From a virus (lineage: Duplodnaviria > Heunggongvirae > Uroviricota > Caudoviricetes), in IMG/VR virus record IMGVR_UViG_3300033994_001334, positions 64,001-78,391 of that record: DNA of 14,391 nt, one strand, 5' to 3'. The notes beneath the pieces are model-generated. The model saw only the letters and a list, made by a program, of their open reading frames with translations, did no database searches and was not told the DNA's origin. The stretch's first letter is position 1. Every line of letters starts with the position of its first letter. The position numbers and the translations under genes are program-made. Shown here piece after piece: positions 7,170 to 14,391 of this stretch.

Positions 7170-7574
7170 TTATATTCCATACCACTCCAAGATTTCTTCA
7201 CCCGATTTAATATCCCGAAGTGTTTTACCAAAACCATCCACGTTTTGATTTTCTTTATATGGATATGAGGAGTTACAAAAGGATGATGAATGAACAAGAT
7301 AATTTAACCCATTAAAGAGTCTTATTATTTTATAATCGGGGTCATCGTCAATGAAATTCATATTAATCATTTTCAATACCGGTGCGGGAAGTTCATTTAA
7401 TCTATTTTTCGGTATTCTATAAATTCCAGTACCATTTGACCATTTTGTGAATATGTAAGTATTTTTGGGAATATCAACAATTGCAAATACACCAATACCA
7501 TGAACCTCTGATAAACGAAGTTCGGTTAGGATATTATGTTTTAAATGGTAAATTACCTCATCCGTTATATCCAT
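7170..7574 (-). CDS. SET-domain protein (putative protein lysine methyltransferase)
   Basis: SEVHGIGVFA (motif I), YLVHSS..CN (variant of the NHS motif), RDIKSGEEILEWY (terminal GEE..Y motif). Confidence 0.8.
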   Translation of the reverse strand: MDITDEVIYHLKHNILTELRLSEVHGIGVFAIVDIPKNTYIFTKWSNGTGIYRIPKNRLNELPAPVLKMINMNFIDDDPDYKIIRLFNGLNYLVHSSSFCNSSYPYKENQNVDGFGKTLRDIKSGEEILEWYGI

Positions 7575-8340: not shown

Positions 8341-8463
8341 TTTTCCCAAAAATTTTTATTTTGAAATCGACCACCTTTTCCCTTTTTTAGGTTTTTTCCC
8401 AAAAATTTTTATTTTTTATATAGGGGGTCTTTCAGATAAATCGACTTTTTCCAAAAAAATTCT
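8341..8463. repeat. Phased A/T-tract direct repeats
   Basis: TTTTCCCAAAAATTTTTATTTT at 8341-8362 and 8394-8415; degenerate third copy from 8447. Period 53 bp. Confidence 0.75.
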
Positions 8464-8512
8464 GGAAAAATTTCAGTTACGGCATTGTCCCCCCTATACA
8501 GACATCGAAATA

Positions 8513-8570
8513 GGGGGTATATAAGGGGGGATACGGGAGGGGGGGTATCATAGGGGGGTGGTGTAGGGGG
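8513..8570 (+). other. G-tract run fitting the G-quadruplex pattern
   Basis: G5-N7-G6-N4-G3-N1-G7-N7-G6-N7-G5. Confidence 0.75.
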
Positions 8571-8636: not shown

Positions 8637-8702
8637 TGTGGATAACTTTATAGAAGAAATATAAAATAGTTCTTGTTATATTCAAAACTAATCTTATCTT
8701 TG
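8637..8702 (+). promoter_or_regulatory. DnaA box plus Bacteroidota-type sigma70 promoter (cassette 1)
   Basis: TGTGGATAA 8637-8645; TTG 8673-8675; TATCTTTG 8695-8702. Confidence 0.8.
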
Positions 8703-8737
8703 TACCCGTTGTAACAAACCAAACAACATTAAATAAA

Positions 8738-9307
8738 ATGACTACAATAGTAAAACAACAAGTAGAAGTAACACCAACTGAAATGGTGGAAATCCTTAAA
8801 GGAGTAGAGGGTAACCCTAATGTACCTTTCGTAAATTGTAAAATGAAAACATTATATAGTGATGTTTTAAAAACTTGTAAAAGTGACGGAACAATTAACC
8901 CATACTTTAAACAAATTTACAAAGTGAGTAGTAAGAATTACAAGTTAGTTACCAACTACGAACAAAGGGTAAAAAACAATTTAATTAAAGAGGGTAAAGA
9001 CCCCAATAGTTTTGTTGTCGAAAGTCCGAAAGGAAAAAAACATATTTCAAAATCGTGTTTAACCGATAAGGAAACCGAAACAAAACTATATGTTATGTTG
9101 GAGTGGTTTCCCGAAATTAAAGGAACAACTGAATACGAATTTGAGGGTAATAGTATTGACAAACAAATTTTTGAAAAGTGGATTTCAACAAGTGAGAGTT
9201 CAAATAAAAAACAAGGTTTGGATAGAGAGATACACCCAATAACCCCACTAATCTCAAATATAATATCAATTTCAGTTAATGGAATGGTTTATATCATTAA
9301 GGAATAA
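8738..9307 (+). CDS. Phage hypothetical protein (cassette 1)
   Basis: 189-aa ORF between a promoter and a terminator; no Ala. Confidence 0.9.
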   Translation: MTTIVKQQVEVTPTEMVEILKGVEGNPNVPFVNCKMKTLYSDVLKTCKSDGTINPYFKQIYKVSSKNYKLVTNYEQRVKNNLIKEGKDPNSFVVESPKGKKHISKSCLTDKETETKLYVMLEWFPEIKGTTEYEFEGNSIDKQIFEKWISTSESSNKKQGLDREIHPITPLISNIISISVNGMVYIIKE

Positions 9308-9326
9308 AAACCCCTTAAAACTAATT

Positions 9327-9360
9327 AAAACACTATCCGAAAGGGTGGTGTTTTTTTTTT
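9327..9360 (+). terminator. Intrinsic terminator, cassette 1
   Basis: AACACTATCC-GAAA-GGGTGGTGTT plus T-run. Confidence 0.85.
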
Positions 9361-9411
9361 GTCCAAAAATTTGTGGATTGAATTTTTTTGGTGGGACCAT
9401 GTTCCATCCGT

Positions 9412-9473
9412 AAAATAGAGGGGCAATTTTGTTTTTGGTGGGTTCTATTTGGGTTTGCCCCTTTAAAAGTTTT
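9412..9473. repeat. Intergenic module B, inverted arms
   Basis: AAAATAGAGGGGCAA (9412-9426), 28-nt spacer, TTGCCCCTTTAAAAGTTTT (9455-9473). Confidence 0.8.
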
Positions 9474-9516
9474 CATGGTCCCTGAGTTTCCGACTCAAGT
9501 CCTTCAGTTCACATTG

Positions 9517-9563
9517 TGTGGAAAACTTTATCTTGTTTTATAATAGTATCCATGTTATATTTG
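9517..9563 (+). promoter_or_regulatory. DnaA box plus promoter (cassette 2)
   Basis: TGTGGAAAA 9517-9525 (fits TTWTNCACA); TTG 9533-9535; TATATTTG 9556-9563. Confidence 0.8.
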
Positions 9564-9586
9564 TATTCAGTTAAACCAAACATATT

Positions 9587-9880
9587 ATGTATACTAAAGA
9601 AGAAATTCAACACAACCTCTCCACTAATCCTAAATGGATTGAAAGAAGTCTTATCGTATTGTACCAAAGACAAACCCAAGATGAACAACAAGTCGGTGGT
9701 ACTTTTGTTCAAAACAATGTAGGTTTTAATAGTTCCGATAGTCGTTACCTCTCTTATTGTAGTAGGTGGTTACTACAAGGTAAACACCTTGACAATGGAC
9801 ACCTTGAAAAGTGTGGTGGGAAATTAAAGAAGTATTGGAAACAGATTGAAAGTATAATCAAGGAAAAGGGGAACAATTAG
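9587..9880 (+). CDS. Phage hypothetical protein with RQTxDE and NNVGFN motifs (cassette 2)
   Basis: 97 aa between promoter and terminator. Motif pattern recalled from widespread phage hypotheticals; function unknown. Confidence 0.88.
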   Translation: MYTKEEIQHNLSTNPKWIERSLIVLYQRQTQDEQQVGGTFVQNNVGFNSSDSRYLSYCSRWLLQGKHLDNGHLEKCGGKLKKYWKQIESIIKEKGNN

Positions 9881-9895
9881 TTCTCCTTTTTTTTT
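9864..9895 (+). terminator. Intrinsic terminator, cassette 2
   Basis: AAAAGGGGAAC-AATTA-GTTCTCCTTTT plus T-run; overlaps the stop codon. Confidence 0.8.
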
Positions 9896-9933
9896 GACCA
9901 CAGATTTTAGAATACCACCCGGTCTTCCATCCG

Positions 9934-9998
9934 GAAAATAATGGGGCAATCGGTATGACAAATGTTGGTATCGGTATGACATTTGCCGACATAAATCC
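9934..9998. repeat. Intergenic module C, inverted arms
   Basis: GAAAATAATGGGGCAA (9934-9949), 33-nt spacer holding two TCGGTATGACA, TTGCCGACATAAATCC (9983-9998). Confidence 0.8.
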
Positions 9999-10019
9999 AA
10001 ACCGTGACGACAGGTGAAG

Positions 10020-10086
10020 GTAACATTACTAAATAAAAAAAAATAAAAAGAAATTCTTGTTTTATTCAGAAATTATATTACCTTTG
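10020..10086 (+). promoter_or_regulatory. A-tract class promoter (cassette 3)
   Basis: GTAACATTAC 10020-10029; A-tract; TTG 10057-10059; TACCTTTG 10079-10086. Confidence 0.8.
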
Positions 10087-10120
10087 TGTCGTTGTAATAA
10101 ACCAAACAACATTTAAAAAA

Positions 10121-10324
10121 ATGAAAAATCTATTTATCTACTTAACATTTATTGTTATTACTTTCTTTTCGGTGTATGGTGCATTTACTATGGACATACC
10201 AACCGACAACCAAATTGGGATGTTATTTTTTGGTTCATTGTCTTTTAGTGTTTTGTTAATGGTAACCTTTTATGATATTCGTATGTTTATCAAAAATAGA
10301 AAACCAAGACCTCAAACTTTCTAA
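10121..10324 (+). CDS. Small two-TM membrane protein (cassette 3)
   Basis: 67 aa, two hydrophobic stretches, basic C-terminal tail. Confidence 0.8.
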   Translation: MKNLFIYLTFIVITFFSVYGAFTMDIPTDNQIGMLFFGSLSFSVLLMVTFYDIRMFIKNRKPRPQTF

Positions 10325-10343
10325 TCTTTCATTTTGTATCTTA

Positions 10344-10374
10344 AAGACCTCATCAGAAATGGTGGGGTTTTTTT
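10344..10374 (+). terminator. Intrinsic terminator, cassette 3
   Basis: ACCTCATCA-GAAA-TGGTGGGGT plus T-run. Confidence 0.8.
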
Positions 10375-10416
10375 GTGTCTGAAGTTTTTAGAATACCACC
10401 CGTGTCCTTCCATCCG

Positions 10417-10596
10417 GAAATTAAATCGGCAAAATCCATATCTGAAGATTTAGTAACATTACTTTCTGTGTCCATGAAAAAGATTTATCGGGGCAACGAC
10501 ACCAAATTATGTGGGGGTTTAATGTGAAATTGCCCCATTAAAAGTTTTCCTCTCAGGGTTCACGGTCAGGACGAATTGTGGTGGATTCGTATGACA
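10417..10596. repeat. Intergenic module D
   Basis: Left arms 10417-10432 and 10481-10496, right arm 10530-10548, CGTATGACA 10588-10596. Confidence 0.8.
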
Positions 10597-10602
10597 AAAA
10601 AA

Positions 10603-10648
10603 TGTGGATAACTTTTTCTTGTTTGTAAAAGTATTTGTATTATATTTG
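10603..10648 (+). promoter_or_regulatory. DnaA box plus promoter (cassette 4)
   Basis: TGTGGATAA 10603-10611; TTG 10619-10621; TATATTTG 10641-10648. Confidence 0.8.
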
Positions 10649-10670
10649 TACTCGTTAAACCAAACATAAA

Positions 10671-10853
10671 ATGAAAGATTTATTAATTACAAAAGTCGTA
10701 ATACTCATAGTAGTATTATTATTAATCACCCTCACAAGTTGTGGGACTTATCAAGTCGTGGGAAGTACAACCTATAACAAAGAGTATAGGACTGATTCAA
10801 CAATCACAAGAGTTTATTATGATTCAACAACAATTAGAATGAGTAAAAATTAA
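10671..10853 (+). CDS. Small putative lipoprotein (cassette 4)
   Basis: Hydrophobic VVILIVVLLLITL followed by lipobox LTSC(24)GTY. Confidence 0.75.
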   Translation: MKDLLITKVVILIVVLLLITLTSCGTYQVVGSTTYNKEYRTDSTITRVYYDSTTIRMSKN

Positions 10854-10857
10854 AATT

Positions 10858-11043
10858 ATGAAAACAATATTTGTATTATTCGTGGATAATAAACCAAAAG
10901 GTATCCTATCTGAAATTCAGTTGGAAAATTATAGTGGTCGTAGTTGGTGGACGACATTTAAAAAAATGTTAGTTCCAACCGAAAAAATAGATGACCTAAA
11001 CATTGGTAACGTAGAAAAATACCTTACCTTATACGGAATTTAA
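10858..11043 (+). CDS. Small hypothetical protein (cassette 4, second gene)
   Basis: 61 aa, starts 4 nt after the previous stop, followed by a terminator. Confidence 0.75.
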   Translation: MKTIFVLFVDNKPKGILSEIQLENYSGRSWWTTFKKMLVPTEKIDDLNIGNVEKYLTLYGI

Positions 11044-11063
11044 TTGAAGTTGGTTTGTGAATT

Positions 11064-11094
11064 AAGGGGTAGAGAAATCTACTCCTTTTTTTTT
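11064..11094 (+). terminator. Intrinsic terminator, cassette 4
   Basis: AAGGGGTAGA-GAAA-TCTACTCCTT plus T-run. Confidence 0.85.
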
Positions 11095-11154
11095 GTTTAA
11101 AAAATTTGGGTTCGGAAGAAAAGTTCGGATGTTTGTGGGGACAGGTCCGTCGGG

Positions 11155-11258
11155 GAAATTAACTCGGCAAACCAGGTAAATACGTTGGGTACGTATGACA
11201 CTTGCCCCATTAAAATTTTTCGTCCGAAGGTTCTGAGATGGTCGGGATTCGTATGACA
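11155..11258. repeat. Intergenic module E
   Basis: Left arm 11155-11170, CGTATGACA 11192-11200, right arm 11202-11220, CGTATGACA 11250-11258. Confidence 0.8.
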
Positions 11259-11262
11259 AGAA

Positions 11263-11308
11263 TGTGGATAACTTTATTTGTTTTATATTCTAAACTAACC
11301 TACATTTG
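11263..11308 (+). promoter_or_regulatory. DnaA box plus promoter (cassette 5)
   Basis: TGTGGATAA 11263-11271; TTTG 11277-11280; TACATTTG 11301-11308. Confidence 0.82.
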
Positions 11309-11333
11309 TATCGTTAAACTAAAAAAATATAAA

Positions 11334-12122
11334 ATGAAAATTAAAGAAGAGTCGTTACTTACCATTGTAAATGAAAAAAACTACATTAGTCATCACGTTG
11401 GTCATATAATGAAATCAATGACCATAGACAAAGTGAATGAAAATGTCTACGTTAGTAAAATGAAATTATTTGAAACTAATGTAAATTGGAGGAGGTTAGT
11501 ATTTTCTGAAAAATCAAAGAAAAATTTAGAAAATTACACAATACCAAAAGATATTCGTGTTGAGGTGTTGAGGTCGTTACCTAATAGAAACGACATCATT
11601 TTAATTGATGAATATAATTGTATAAAATATATAAAAACCGATAATGAATTAATAGTATCATTTCATTATACAAATAAAACACATTTAAATGATTATGGTG
11701 CACCCGTACTTTATATGTTTTATTTTCAAGTTAATTTGATAACCGGTAAAATTTCATCCGACCAAATGGATTTTGAAAGTAATAAAATGGTGGATTATGA
11801 AATGTTAATCGAAAAGTTTTATAGTCGTTTTTTGGTGGTGATTACATATTTGGAATTGACCGAAGTAACATTAAATGTAATTGAAGGTGGTAAATCGTTT
11901 GGTACTTGGAATAGTGGTAAGATTAAAAACAAAACAAAAAATAGAATTATAATGGTTAATACAAATTGGAATGTAGAAACCATTAGTCTAAATAGTTTTT
12001 CAGTTCGTGGACATTGGAGATTACAACCTTGTGGTGTTGGTAGAAGTCAGTTTAAATATGTTTACATTAAACCATATGAAAAAGGTTTGATTAGAAGATT
12101 ACCACAAAAAGAATTGGTTTAA
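11334..12122 (+). CDS. Phage protein with C-terminal VRGHWR motif, 262 aa (cassette 5)
   Basis: Start moved from 11238 to 11334 because the track extension runs through the promoter. C-terminal SVRGHWRLQPCG...YIKPYEKG. Confidence 0.88.
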   Translation: MKIKEESLLTIVNEKNYISHHVGHIMKSMTIDKVNENVYVSKMKLFETNVNWRRLVFSEKSKKNLENYTIPKDIRVEVLRSLPNRNDIILIDEYNCIKYIKTDNELIVSFHYTNKTHLNDYGAPVLYMFYFQVNLITGKISSDQMDFESNKMVDYEMLIEKFYSRFLVVITYLELTEVTLNVIEGGKSFGTWNSGKIKNKTKNRIIMVNTNWNVETISLNSFSVRGHWRLQPCGVGRSQFKYVYIKPYEKGLIRRLPQKELV

Positions 12123-12127
12123 CAACG

Positions 12128-12161
12128 AAAATTTCCTCAACGAAAGTTGGGGATTTTTTTT
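12128..12161 (+). terminator. Intrinsic terminator, cassette 5
   Basis: TCCTCAAC-GAAA-GTTGGGGA plus T-run. Confidence 0.85.
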
Positions 12162-12205
12162 GCGCTAACGCTGCTCTGGTTTGCGCAACAGCTGCTGGTT
12201 CAGGT

Positions 12206-12289
12206 GGAATTAGTTCGGCAACGTATGACACTTGCCCCATTAAAATTTTTCCTCTCAGGGTTCGGGAATCAGGGTGGACTCGTATGACA
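12206..12289. repeat. Intergenic module F
   Basis: Left arm 12206-12221, CGTATGACA 12222-12230, right arm 12232-12250, CGTATGACA 12281-12289. Confidence 0.8.
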
Positions 12290-12293
12290 ATAA

Positions 12294-12339
12294 TGTGGAT
12301 AACTTTATTTTTTTTATAATGGTATATGTGGTATATTTG
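12294..12339 (+). promoter_or_regulatory. DnaA box plus promoter (cassette 6)
   Basis: TGTGGATAA 12294-12302; -33 element degenerate; TATATTTG 12332-12339. Confidence 0.75.
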
Positions 12340-12367
12340 TATCTCAAACCAAAAATAAATAAATCAA

Positions 12368-12583
12368 ATGAAAGTAGTATCATCTCGTATCACCGACCAA
12401 CCAAAAAGTTTCTTTGACCCAATCCCACAAGTGTTCGTAACTTTAGAAAATGGGGAAGAACAATTCTTATTCGATTACTATCCCGATGAAATCAGTTTCA
12501 CACCTAATGAGTTCGTGGGTTTGACACTTGATGAGTGTAGACACTTGAAGTTTGTAAAAGATAAAAGATACCTAACAAGTTGA
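12368..12583 (+). CDS. Small phage hypothetical protein with YPDEISF motif (cassette 6)
   Basis: 71 aa directly behind a promoter. Confidence 0.85.
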   Translation: MKVVSSRITDQPKSFFDPIPQVFVTLENGEEQFLFDYYPDEISFTPNEFVGLTLDECRHLKFVKDKRYLTS

Positions 12584-12614
12584 TGTCATGGAAAAACTAT
12601 CGTGTAAAGAAAGA

Positions 12615-12695
12615 ATGAAAGAGTTATTGGGAATACTAATTGTTTTACCGATACTAATTTATTACGGAATCCGATTTTTAATAAGGGGTAGATAA
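12615..12695 (+). CDS. Possible 26-aa single-TM peptide (35 aa if started at 12588)
   Basis: Manual translation MKELLGILIVLPILIYYGIRFLIRGR; fills the space up to the terminator. Confidence 0.45.
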   Translation: MKELLGILIVLPILIYYGIRFLIRGR

Positions 12696-12713
12696 TTCTA
12701 CTCCTTTTTTTTT
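12683..12713 (+). terminator. Intrinsic terminator, cassette 6
   Basis: AAGGGGTAGA-TAAT-TCTACTCCTT plus T-run; same stem as cassette 4. Confidence 0.85.
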
Positions 12714-12763
12714 GTCCAAAAATTTGTGGTTTGAAAAAAATCGAGGAGATGTTGGGTGAATCC

Positions 12764-12865
12764 GAATTTAACTCGGCAATCGTATAACACCTTATACTCG
12801 TATGACGATTGCCCCATTAAAAATTTTCGGGGACGAGCTCTGAGATGGTCTGAATTCGTATGACA
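12764..12865. repeat. Intergenic module G
   Basis: Left arm 12764-12779, CGTATAACA 12781-12789, CGTATGACG 12799-12807, right arm 12809-12827, CGTATGACA 12857-12865. Confidence 0.8.
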
Positions 12866-12869
12866 AGAA

Positions 12870-12915
12870 TGTGGATAACTTTATTTGTTTTATATTCCAA
12901 ACTAAACTACATTTG
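12870..12915 (+). promoter_or_regulatory. DnaA box plus promoter (cassette 7)
   Basis: TGTGGATAA 12870-12878; TTTG 12884-12887; TACATTTG 12908-12915. Confidence 0.82.
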
Positions 12916-12948
12916 TATCGTTGTAATAAACCAAACAACACCAATTAT

Positions 12949-13395
12949 ATGAAATTCAATACAAAATCATTAGACCACAAATTCTATGGTAAGACCATTA
13001 GAACATTTACTGAATTAGAAAGTAAATTATTTGAACTTGACCTATTAATGTCAATGACCTTTATGGTTAGTAAAATGGGTGAAGAAACCAAAGAATTAAA
13101 AGAAACCTTAAACGATATGGGTAAGGTTCGTTTTGTTATTTCTTGTGAACTTTTGGGTTACTCTGAAACTCACATTTCAATCATTCCATTTGAAACAATA
13201 ATGGAAAAAATTGAAGAGAGTGATTATGGGTTCACTAAATTTTTACAAGACCACCAAGAAAATTCTAAATTAATTCCAAAAGAAGATGTGGAGATGATTG
13301 AAAAGTTGTTAAGGAACGAACTTTCAAAGAAAGAAGATGTAGTCGGTCAGATGTCTGATAGTGTTAGACAACAACCGAGTTATATGTGGAACTAA
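12949..13395 (+). CDS. Helical hypothetical protein, 148 aa (cassette 7)
   Basis: Start moved from 12871 to 12949 because the track extension runs through the promoter. Confidence 0.85.
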   Translation: MKFNTKSLDHKFYGKTIRTFTELESKLFELDLLMSMTFMVSKMGEETKELKETLNDMGKVRFVISCELLGYSETHISIIPFETIMEKIEESDYGFTKFLQDHQENSKLIPKEDVEMIEKLLRNELSKKEDVVGQMSDSVRQQPSYMWN

Positions 13396-13423
13396 TTTTG
13401 TCTATCATAGTTGTTCTATGACT

Positions 13424-13453
13424 AACCCTCACCCGAAATGGTGGGGGTTTTTT
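13424..13453 (+). terminator. Intrinsic terminator, cassette 7
   Basis: AACCCTCACC-CGAAAT-GGTGGGGGTT plus T-run. Confidence 0.8.
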
Positions 13454-13492
13454 ATTTCCCGTATCTTGAGTCGGAGATGTTCGTCCCTTCCC

Positions 13493-13611
13493 AAAACTAA
13501 GTCGGCAACGTATGACACTTGAGTCGGGAATTCCGTCGTTACCGTCCGGGACAGATGAAATTAGGTTTGCAACGTATGACATTTGCCGAACTAATTTCCG
13601 GATTACGACGG
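13493..13611. repeat. Intergenic module H
   Basis: Left arms 13493-13508 and 13557-13572, CGTATGACA 13509-13517 and 13573-13581, right arm 13583-13598. Confidence 0.8.
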
Positions 13612-13623
13612 TTCTGAGAAAAA

Positions 13624-13685
13624 GTAACGTTACAAAAAAAAATAAAAAGAAATTCTTGTTTTATTCAGAAATTGTATTACCTTTG
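13624..13685 (+). promoter_or_regulatory. A-tract class promoter (cassette 8)
   Basis: GTAACGTTAC 13624-13633; A-tract; TTG 13656-13658; TACCTTTG 13678-13685. Confidence 0.8.
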
Positions 13686-13713
13686 TTCTTGTTAAACCAA
13701 TAGAAAAAATAAA

Positions 13714-14076
13714 ATGAAAAAAGGAATTTTAATCGATGTTCATAACAGAACAATCACAGAAGTAGAAGTAACCAAAGATGAAAATGGTTCTCAATTACAA
13801 TCAATGTACAATCACATTAAATGTGGAATTGTGGAGTGTGTTGGTTTTGATGAAAAAAATGATGTGTGGGTTGATGAAGAGGGGTTATTAACTTTAACAC
13901 CCGATTCGATGTTTTTTAAATTTGAGGGGTATCCCGATTTTTTATGTGGTAATGGTTTGGTTATGGGTTTTGATAATGAAACGGGAGAAAGTGTTGATAC
14001 GACCTTAACTATTGATGAAGTAAAATCAATGGTAGAATTTCGTACACTAAACGAAGTAAGAAGACAGTTAGTTTAA
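13714..14076 (+). CDS. DUF3846-like protein (cassette 8)
   Basis: L..MY.HI.C..VE.V.....D.WVDEEGL...LCGNGLV matches my recollection of the DUF3846 (N/D)EEG pattern. Confidence 0.65.
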   Translation: MKKGILIDVHNRTITEVEVTKDENGSQLQSMYNHIKCGIVECVGFDEKNDVWVDEEGLLTLTPDSMFFKFEGYPDFLCGNGLVMGFDNETGESVDTTLTIDEVKSMVEFRTLNEVRRQLV

Positions 14077-14095
14077 TGTAATGTTTGGTTCATGG

Positions 14096-14128
14096 AAATT
14101 TCCTCACCGAAAGGTGGGGATTTTTTTT
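14096..14128 (+). terminator. Intrinsic terminator, cassette 8
   Basis: TCCTCACC-GAAA-GGTGGGGA plus T-run; near twin of cassette 5. Confidence 0.85.
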
Positions 14129-14171
14129 GCGCTAAAATTACTGGTGTTTGCGCATGGTGACTAGTCAGAAT

Positions 14172-14250
14172 GGAATTAGTTCGGCAACATTTAAATATGG
14201 TGTTGTTGCCCTTTTAATTTTCCTGGAGGACCTGTCGACTTCGACTCAAG
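14172..14250. repeat. Intergenic module I
   Basis: Left arm 14172-14187 (identical to module F), right arm TTGCCCTTTTAATTTTC from 14206, CGACTCAAG 14242-14250. Confidence 0.78.
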
Positions 14251-14267
14251 ATTCTATGTAAATATAA

Positions 14268-14313
14268 TGTGGATAACTTTTATTTTTTTATACCGAAAAT
14301 TAAACTACATTTG
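14268..14313 (+). promoter_or_regulatory. DnaA box plus promoter (cassette 9)
   Basis: TGTGGATAA 14268-14276; -33 element degenerate; TACATTTG 14306-14313. Confidence 0.75.
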
Positions 14314-14347
14314 TATCGTTGTAATAAACCAAACAACATTTAATTTT

Positions 14348-14391
14348 ATGAACATAATTAAAACATTAGAGTATTCAATGGACTACTCACA
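14348..14391 (+). CDS. 5' fragment of the cassette 9 gene
   Basis: ATG after the conserved leader; MNIIKTLEYSMDYS is open to the window end. Confidence 0.7.
   Translation, partial: MNIIKTLEYSMDYS

Follow-up and report, generated by a model that had tools for sequence, protein, structure and literature searches.

Seven of the nine promoters in a bacteriophage small-gene array carry a motif matching the site bound by DnaA, which initiates replication in bacteria (the DnaA box), in one orientation and at fixed helical positions upstream of the core promoter elements. The array lies at the end of a 14,391-nucleotide stretch (hereafter the window), which forms the final 14.4 kb of a linear, 78,391-bp IMG/VR contig from a Caudoviricetes phage. 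The same oriented element recurs in relatives of this phage, in many other phages with Bacteroidota-type promoters, and upstream of host genes such as dnaN, nrdD, and nrdB. DnaA as the binder, activation as the effect, and expression early in infection are what we infer from this pattern. The reading favored here, to which we assign a probability of about 0.55, is that host DnaA acts as a phase-locked upstream activator of promoters served by the host RNA polymerase (RNAP).

Arrangement of the boxes in the window

The motif is present as six copies of the 10-mer TGTGGATAAC and one copy of TGTGGAAAAC, all on the + strand, a count reached by none of 200 shuffles. Measured from the start of the box to the T of the -7 element TAnnTTTG, its distance is 38-39 bp in six cassettes and 58 bp in the first. 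The original prediction, made from the sequence of this stretch, had placed boxes at a fixed position upstream of seven of nine promoters, and that arrangement is confirmed. The boxes and the two promoters that lack them are listed below in window coordinates.

8637-8646, + strand: DnaA box of cassette 1, TGTGGATAAC; 58 bp before the -7 element at 8695-8702
9517-9526, + strand: DnaA box variant of cassette 2, TGTGGAAAAC (= TTTTCCACA); 39 bp before the -7 element at 9556-9563
10603-10612, + strand: DnaA box of cassette 4; 38 bp before the -7 element at 10641-10648
11263-11272, + strand: DnaA box of cassette 5; 38 bp before the -7 element at 11301-11308
12294-12303, + strand: DnaA box of cassette 6; 38 bp before the -7 element at 12332-12339; -33 region T-rich, without TTG
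12870-12879, + strand: DnaA box of cassette 7; 38 bp before the -7 element at 12908-12915
14268-14277, + strand: DnaA box of cassette 9; 38 bp before the -7 element at 14306-14313; -33 region T-rich, without TTG
10020-10086, + strand: box-less promoter of cassette 3 (gene 10121), with a GTAACATTAC palindrome, an UP-like A-tract, the -33 element CTTG, and the -7 element TACCTTTG at 10079
13624-13685, + strand: box-less promoter of cassette 8 (gene 13714), with a GTAACGTTAC palindrome, an A-tract, a -33 element, and the -7 element TACCTTTG at 13678

The longer distance in cassette 1 is explained by a 20-bp A-rich insert between the box and the -33 element; the syntenic box in the relative L306 lacks this insert and lies at 38 bp. 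The -7 element fits TAHHTTTG in all nine cassettes. A -33 TTG is found 19-20 bp upstream in seven of them, within the 17-22 bp range of sigma-ABfr promoters, and cassettes 6 and 9 show only a T-run in its place. In cassettes 3 and 8, the position of the box is taken by an A-tract.

Neighboring boxes lie 576-1398 bp apart, with one box per promoter. The flanks vary among cassettes and the box with its following TT is invariant, which marks it as a conserved island rather than the by-product of a recent duplication. A count of boxes across the genome had been suggested as a check. It showed the 9-mer TGTGGATAA to be confined to the array boxes, with no further copy on either strand of the 78,391-bp contig.

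Identity of the motif

The six perfect 9-mers and the single TTTTCCACA of the window all match the DnaA consensus (TTATCCACA / TTWTNCACA). The full 10-mer is one that we take to match the strong R1 and R4 sites of E. coli oriC. For R1 and R4, only the 9-mer TTATCCACA is given in PMC5835720, and the same source identifies TTTTCCACA, the sole variant within the window, as the mioC/R5 box of E. coli. The variants encountered, TGTGGAAAA and GGTGGATAA, fall inside TTWTNCACA, and degenerate forms (TGTTGATAAC and TGTTAATAAC) occupy the box position in some relatives.

Boxes in the window are single. Head-to-tail pairs with 2 bp between the 9-mers occur in three loci of relatives (L252, L061, and L306), and dimers of E. 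coli DnaA bind preferentially to pairs spaced by 2-3 bp (PMC11317965). A second, degenerate box 2-3 bp from the window boxes was sought by eye and discarded, as only four of nine positions match. A CRP-like palindrome was likewise rejected, since there is no TCACA half-site. With the variants inside the consensus and the 2-bp pairs in relatives, the 10-mers are best regarded as genuine high-affinity DnaA boxes, as first proposed, and they would serve as upstream operator elements of host-RNAP promoters of the sigma-ABfr type (-33/-7).

Geometry in relatives and spread among other phages

Similar arrays are present in G001/G002 and G003, whose 691-amino-acid marker protein is 77-89% identical to that of this phage, and in G005, which gave no marker match and is linked by a 65%-identical homologue of the cassette-1 gene. 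In the G005 locus (L252), the box is doubled in seven or more cassettes; the two copies, TGTGGATAA-CT-TGTGGAAAA, start 59 and 48 bp before the -7 element. Boxes lie at 38 and 47-48 bp in L045 and at 39 and 49 bp in L061. In the array of L306, a syntenic relative with a nucleotide identity of 82-96%, box and A-tract promoters stand alongside degenerate boxes and a double box at 59 and 70 bp.

A census without any distance constraint covered 557 distinct promoter-like sites in the window, in 52 metagenome loci of relatives, and in other relative loci. Forward boxes were found at 38 bp (23 sites), 39 bp (5), 47-49 bp (22), and 58-59 bp (11), and almost nowhere else; only three boxes were in reverse orientation. 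Promoters of F. johnsoniae are numbered T-12 A-11 .. G-5 (PMC6847099). With T-12 as the reference, the 9-mer spans -50 to -42, and box centers fall near -46, -57, -67, and -78. These centers share one face of the helix in steps of 10-10.5 bp, and the distances fall almost only at 38-39, 47-49, 58-59, and 70 bp.

The box is not the only module in this position. In the relative G053, an equivalent small-gene array (L284; G053:36000-56000) contains about 17 promoters, nearly all preceded by an A-tract of the AAAATAAAT type and only two of them with a box, and it has almost no nucleotide similarity to the array of the window. On such comparisons, array gene content and upstream modules turn over very fast.

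Beyond the relatives, IMG/VR was scanned for a box plus TTT, a gap of 20-30 nt, and TAnnTTTG, and at least 120 contigs matched. Removal of near-duplicates and tandem-box artefacts left 79 distinct sequences among the matches listed; the gap is 25-26 nt (equivalent to 38-39 bp) in 47 of these 79, and every other gap accounts for one to six. The carriers are many different contigs with Bacteroidota-type promoters, including small complete phages of 29-63 kb, in which the typical order is a terminator, the box, TTTGG, the -7 element, and the ATG of a small ORFan. The genes that follow box promoters, both in the window and in 10 other phages, are all ORFans or without assigned function. Of 49 carrier contigs searched, 10 are complete (>=90%) genomes, and none of these encodes Bac_DnaA_C, the DNA-binding domain of DnaA.

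One large phage contig of this promoter type (G017; IMGVR_UViG_3300006103_000007) holds ten perfect DnaA boxes within 350 bp (44709-45058), an ori-like cluster, in addition to box-type promoters. A link to the crAss-like phage phi14:2 and its virion RNAP was considered and dropped: that genome has no perfect box, and matches with one mismatch do not exceed the control. The paper on phi14:2 reports no motif common to its early transcripts.

Host counterparts

The same architecture is present at bacterial promoters. A scan of 151 Flavobacteriales genomes for TGTGGATAA followed within 16-46 nt by TAnnTTTG returned 161 matches, of which 150 were listed. Among those listed, the box lies 47-49 bp before the -7 element in 67 and 38-39 bp in 23, with about five per bin expected. 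In reverse orientation, the same genomes gave 106 matches with a flat distribution, except for one orthologous family. The 38-bp group corresponds to the dnaN promoter (L291, L296; Pfam DNA_pol3_beta).

In a scan of all genomes, the same geometry was found in Bacteroidota upstream of nrdD (L155, Porphyromonas), of nrdB (L157) and smc (L173) in Saprospiraceae, and of a topoisomerase IV B-like gene (L184), carA, pyrE, and PPDK. Promoter-linked copies number one to three per host genome. This gene set resembles the compact DnaA regulon of E. coli, which comprises nucleotide synthesis and replication genes (PMC11317965). The DnaA encoded in Flavobacteriales genomes is canonical and includes domain IV (E about 1e-29). 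The census geometry and the shared orientation and distance at dnaN, nrdD, nrdB, and smc support a role of the box in transcription. Given unrelated phages that carry the element without a DnaA-like domain and a host dnaN/nrd design of the same kind, host DnaA is the most economical reader.

At a conserved locus of Flavobacteriales genomes (for example G129:C5:1591-1644 and G118:C1:65414-65467), TTATCCACA precedes three 9-mer-like repeats that contain GTGG, 54 bp before a -7 element. This promoter may be regulated by DnaA or lie close to the origin.

Proposed role of host DnaA as a phase-locked activator

Most likely, host DnaA bound to the box would contact RNAP, through the alpha subunit or sigma region 4, and thereby activate transcription. 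Bound DnaA would fill the position held by the UP-like A-tract in the box-less cassettes, and the phage would in effect use the promoter design of host dnaN, nrd, and related genes. Expression of small, probably early, phage genes would then depend on how much of the host replication initiator is present or available. The further suggestion that the phage reads the boxes as a sensor of host growth state is speculation.

Several features fit an activator-type element whose reader touches RNAP. The box stays clear of both core elements, its orientation is constant, and it shifts by whole helical turns only, staying on one face of the helix as in activator-dependent promoters of the class I/II type. 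Upstream of the core, box and A-tract can replace one another or be stacked, which would be expected if the box is a positive element. Cassettes 6 and 9, which have a box and no -33 TTG, fit dependence on an activator.

Other observations weigh against this reading. In vivo, E. coli DnaA mostly requires paired boxes (PMC11317965), and those of the window are single. The phage motif extends to a 12-mer, TGTGGAWAAC-TT, longer than host promoter boxes, and this extension could indicate a reader other than DnaA. Helical phasing is also typical of UP elements, contacted by the C-terminal domain of the alpha subunit (alpha-CTD), and of looping repressors, which leaves activation unproven. On the host side, many matches are orthologous promoters, hence non-independent events, and some boxes precede genes unrelated to replication (PPDK, pckA, and secreted proteins). 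One complete Flavobacteriales genome contained 34 perfect boxes against 38 in the control, with neither enrichment nor a cluster, and six Flavobacteriales genomes contained no tandem pair of perfect boxes; these counts give no independent support for the preferred box of the host. The host itself is narrowed down only to Flavobacterium-type Bacteroidota, to which a protein with a type IX secretion system (T9SS) sorting domain and the TAnnTTTG promoters point. Finally, the stretch is present in 20 lake-water metagenome DNA studies, and no RNA run is listed with it. A DnaA-like gene in relatives, discussed below, adds to these points.

Source contig and features of the array

The source contig has a CheckV completeness of 25%, which implies a full phage genome of about 310 kb, and complete relatives are known at 310,542 and 310,691 bp. 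A megablast of the region against GenBank phages gave no match, nor did an exact 44-mer from the contig end among metagenome contigs. The array reaches the contig end, and in L306 it continues at least 10 kb beyond the end of the window. Its units and one repeated motif are as follows.

8738-14391, + strand: nine small-gene transcription units, with starts at 8738, 9587, 10121, 10671 (with 10858), 11334, 12368, 12949, 13714, and 14349
9953-13580, + strand: eleven GTATGAC motifs, intergenic and on the same strand, a number reached in 0 of 200 shuffles

Each unit consists of the -7 element, usually with a TTG 19-20 bp upstream, a leader of 30-43 nt, a small open reading frame, and an intrinsic terminator (a hairpin with a T-run) that closes the cassette; 11 terminator-like sites were found against 4.2 expected. 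The products are small ORFans, except for one DUF3846 protein (13714-14076, + strand) with homologues in 52 metagenome contigs of the phage group.

GTATGAC is probably the site of a second, lineage-specific factor. In cassettes 4-7, a proximal copy begins 12-14 bp before the box; cassettes 5-7 have a partner copy another 58-59 bp upstream, and cassette 4 has the single copy. The palindrome GTAAC(A/G)TTAC occurs at 10020, 10453, and 13624 (0 of 200 shuffles), lies just upstream of the A-tract in both box-less promoters, and turns up again at A-tract promoters of L306. A different regulator may use it as an operator.

Five copies of TAGGGGG(T) lie at 8421-8570, in the intergenic region from which the leftward and rightward gene blocks diverge, and coincide with the minimum of the cumulative GC skew. 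The cluster looks iteron-like and might serve as an origin or as a regulatory hub. At 7170-7574 on the - strand, the window encodes a SET-domain protein (E 1e-6).

Alternative readers and roles of the box

A phage protein with the specificity of DnaA had been named as an alternative from the outset, and a candidate does exist in relatives. G053 (310 kb, 93% complete), G004 (335 kb, 100%), and G069 encode a 132-amino-acid protein made up of Bac_DnaA_C only (PF08299; E 1e-20 to 1e-21). In alignment with 1J1V, the structure of domain IV from E. coli, the protein retains the DHTT..H recognition motif; the PHROGs annotation of such proteins is function unknown. The genes (L283:1408-1803, - strand, in G053; L253:1384-1779, + strand, in G004; and L289 in G069) sit in a conserved neighborhood, adjoining a gene for a conserved 182-amino-acid protein. 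Such a stand-alone domain IV could read the boxes and switch the promoters off (or on) later in infection, or displace host DnaA.

In the phage studied here, the gene would sit in the roughly 75% of the genome beyond this contig. G053, whose marker protein is 89% identical, has its domain IV gene about 80 kb from the marker, which by synteny corresponds to a place about 28 kb past the end of the contig. Every array-bearing contig is a fragment ending near the array, probably because repeats break assemblies. Searches that did not find Bac_DnaA_C in G000, in any array locus, or in G001, G002, G003, and G005, all of them fragments, are uninformative on this point.

Gene presence and box use, however, are not coupled. 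G053 has the domain IV gene and yet only two box promoters among about 17, the others being of the A-tract type, and the 335 kb of G004 contain four boxes. The gene is missing from the complete relative G054 and from the 10 complete carrier genomes mentioned above, small phages among them. Moreover, domain IV alone cannot oligomerise, whereas the doubled boxes show the 2-bp spacing typical of full-length DnaA dimers. A phage-encoded reader is thus unlikely, though it deserves serious weight. The 132-amino-acid protein, a candidate DnaA-box decoy or competitor, may also coexist with host DnaA.

Host DnaA could also bind the boxes and repress, so that the genes stay silent until DnaA is titrated or inactivated, or are shut off as it accumulates. 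DnaA represses its own gene, dnaA, as well as mioC and rpoH in E. coli. Most of the well-studied E. coli targets are in fact repressed (PMC11317965), the box abuts the -33 element, where it could occlude an alpha-CTD or UP contact, and the GTATGAC factor site lies directly beside it. Simple occlusion, however, does not reach far enough: the box stays off the -33 and -7 elements and is kept at steps of 10-10.5 bp to about -78. It also replaces or stacks on the UP-like A-tract, a positive module, and two box promoters have poor -33 elements. Repression is, on balance, improbable.

Titration of DnaA by datA-type sites and recruitment of DnaA for phage replication were both part of the original prediction, and neither is supported by the layout of the array. 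Phage DNA replication would multiply seven or more strong boxes, the first box adjoins the iteron-like TAGGGGG cluster and the GC-skew minimum, and ori-like clusters exist in other phages with Bacteroidota-type promoters, as the 10 boxes in 350 bp of G017 illustrate. A sink or origin, however, needs no geometry in which single boxes are locked to promoters in orientation and helical phase. The boxes of the window are dispersed rather than clustered, with no AT-rich unwinding element or IHF-type site seen beside them, and close relatives swap boxes for A-tracts, which would abolish a sink. A role mainly as a sink or as part of an origin is very improbable.

Hardly credible is the notion that RNAP itself, through alpha-CTD or sigma, contacts the motif as an extended -33/UP element, or that an unrelated factor reads a coincidental likeness: the UP-element position, the phasing typical of alpha-CTD sites, and a 12-mer exceeding the 9-mer would suit it, but the first half is G-rich (TGTGG) rather than an A/T-rich tract, real A-tracts occupy the place in cassettes 3 and 8 and in G053, host genomes contain few promoter-linked copies, including those at replication and nucleotide genes, and the motif is the exact universal high-affinity box with DnaA-type variants and 2-bp pairs.

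Activation by host DnaA remains the preferred reading, and it can be extended to a wider model that we hold only tentatively, at somewhat short of even odds. Bacteroidota would own a dedicated class of DnaA-activated promoters, defined by a single oriented box about -46, -57, or -67 from a -33/-7 core and serving dnaN, nrd, and related genes. Phages from 30 kb to jumbo phages of 310 kb would have captured this class repeatedly for their first-expressed genes, infection thus reading the replication state of the host, and some jumbo relatives would have added a domain-IV-only DnaA decoy.

Significance and comparison with known systems

We know of no experimental work on Bacteroidota DnaA. Even in E. 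coli, transcription activation by DnaA is poorly understood (PMC11317965). The oriented single-box class offers a clean architecture for a DnaA-RNAP contact, reused by hosts and by many unrelated phages. If the activator reading is true, it would represent a widespread viral coupling of initial gene expression to the host replication initiator, and the stand-alone domain IV genes of relatives suggest an added layer of initiator mimicry. Such coupling would be relevant to slow-growing lake and gut Bacteroidota and to the design of Bacteroidota expression tools.

In the literature searched, neither this promoter class, with its use across phages with Bacteroidota-type promoters and its match to host dnaN/nrd geometry, nor a fixed box orientation with helix-phased positions for DnaA in any phylum is described, and a review of jumbo phages does not mention DnaA. 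DnaA as a transcription factor is already well known.

In E. coli, B. subtilis, and Caulobacter, the promoters at which DnaA acts include nrd, dnaN/dnaA, polA, and similar ones (Messer & Weigel 1997; Stringer et al. 2024, PMC11317965). The promoters described here share with DnaA-regulated promoters elsewhere the 9-mer, the tolerated variants, the 2-bp pairs (in relatives), and host targets in nucleotide synthesis and replication (dnaN, nrdD, and nrdB). They differ in having one fixed orientation and discrete helix-phased positions (about -46, -57, and -67) relative to the -33/-7 core.

Compared with datA and DARS of E. coli, strong DnaA boxes outside the origin are a common feature. Those loci, however, are tight clusters with IHF sites that act on the nucleotide state of DnaA, whereas the phage boxes are dispersed.

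At class I/II activator promoters, CRP is centered at -41.5, -61.5, or -72.5. Such promoters and UP elements resemble the phage cassettes in having a site upstream of the -35 equivalent, in strict dependence on the helix face, and in interchangeability with an A-tract. The site itself differs, as the asymmetric match to an initiator box is neither a palindrome of the CRP type nor an A/T-rich alpha-CTD site.

Among phages, DnaA stimulates pR of lambda, and DnaA boxes are present in P1 and plasmid origins. The lambda system (for context, PMC3985674) is alike in that the host initiator is put to use by a phage at regulatory DNA of the phage itself. In lambda, the DnaA sites lie downstream of a single promoter and serve origin activation, whereas the class described here has one box per promoter, on the upstream side, at many independent small-gene promoters and across many unrelated phages.

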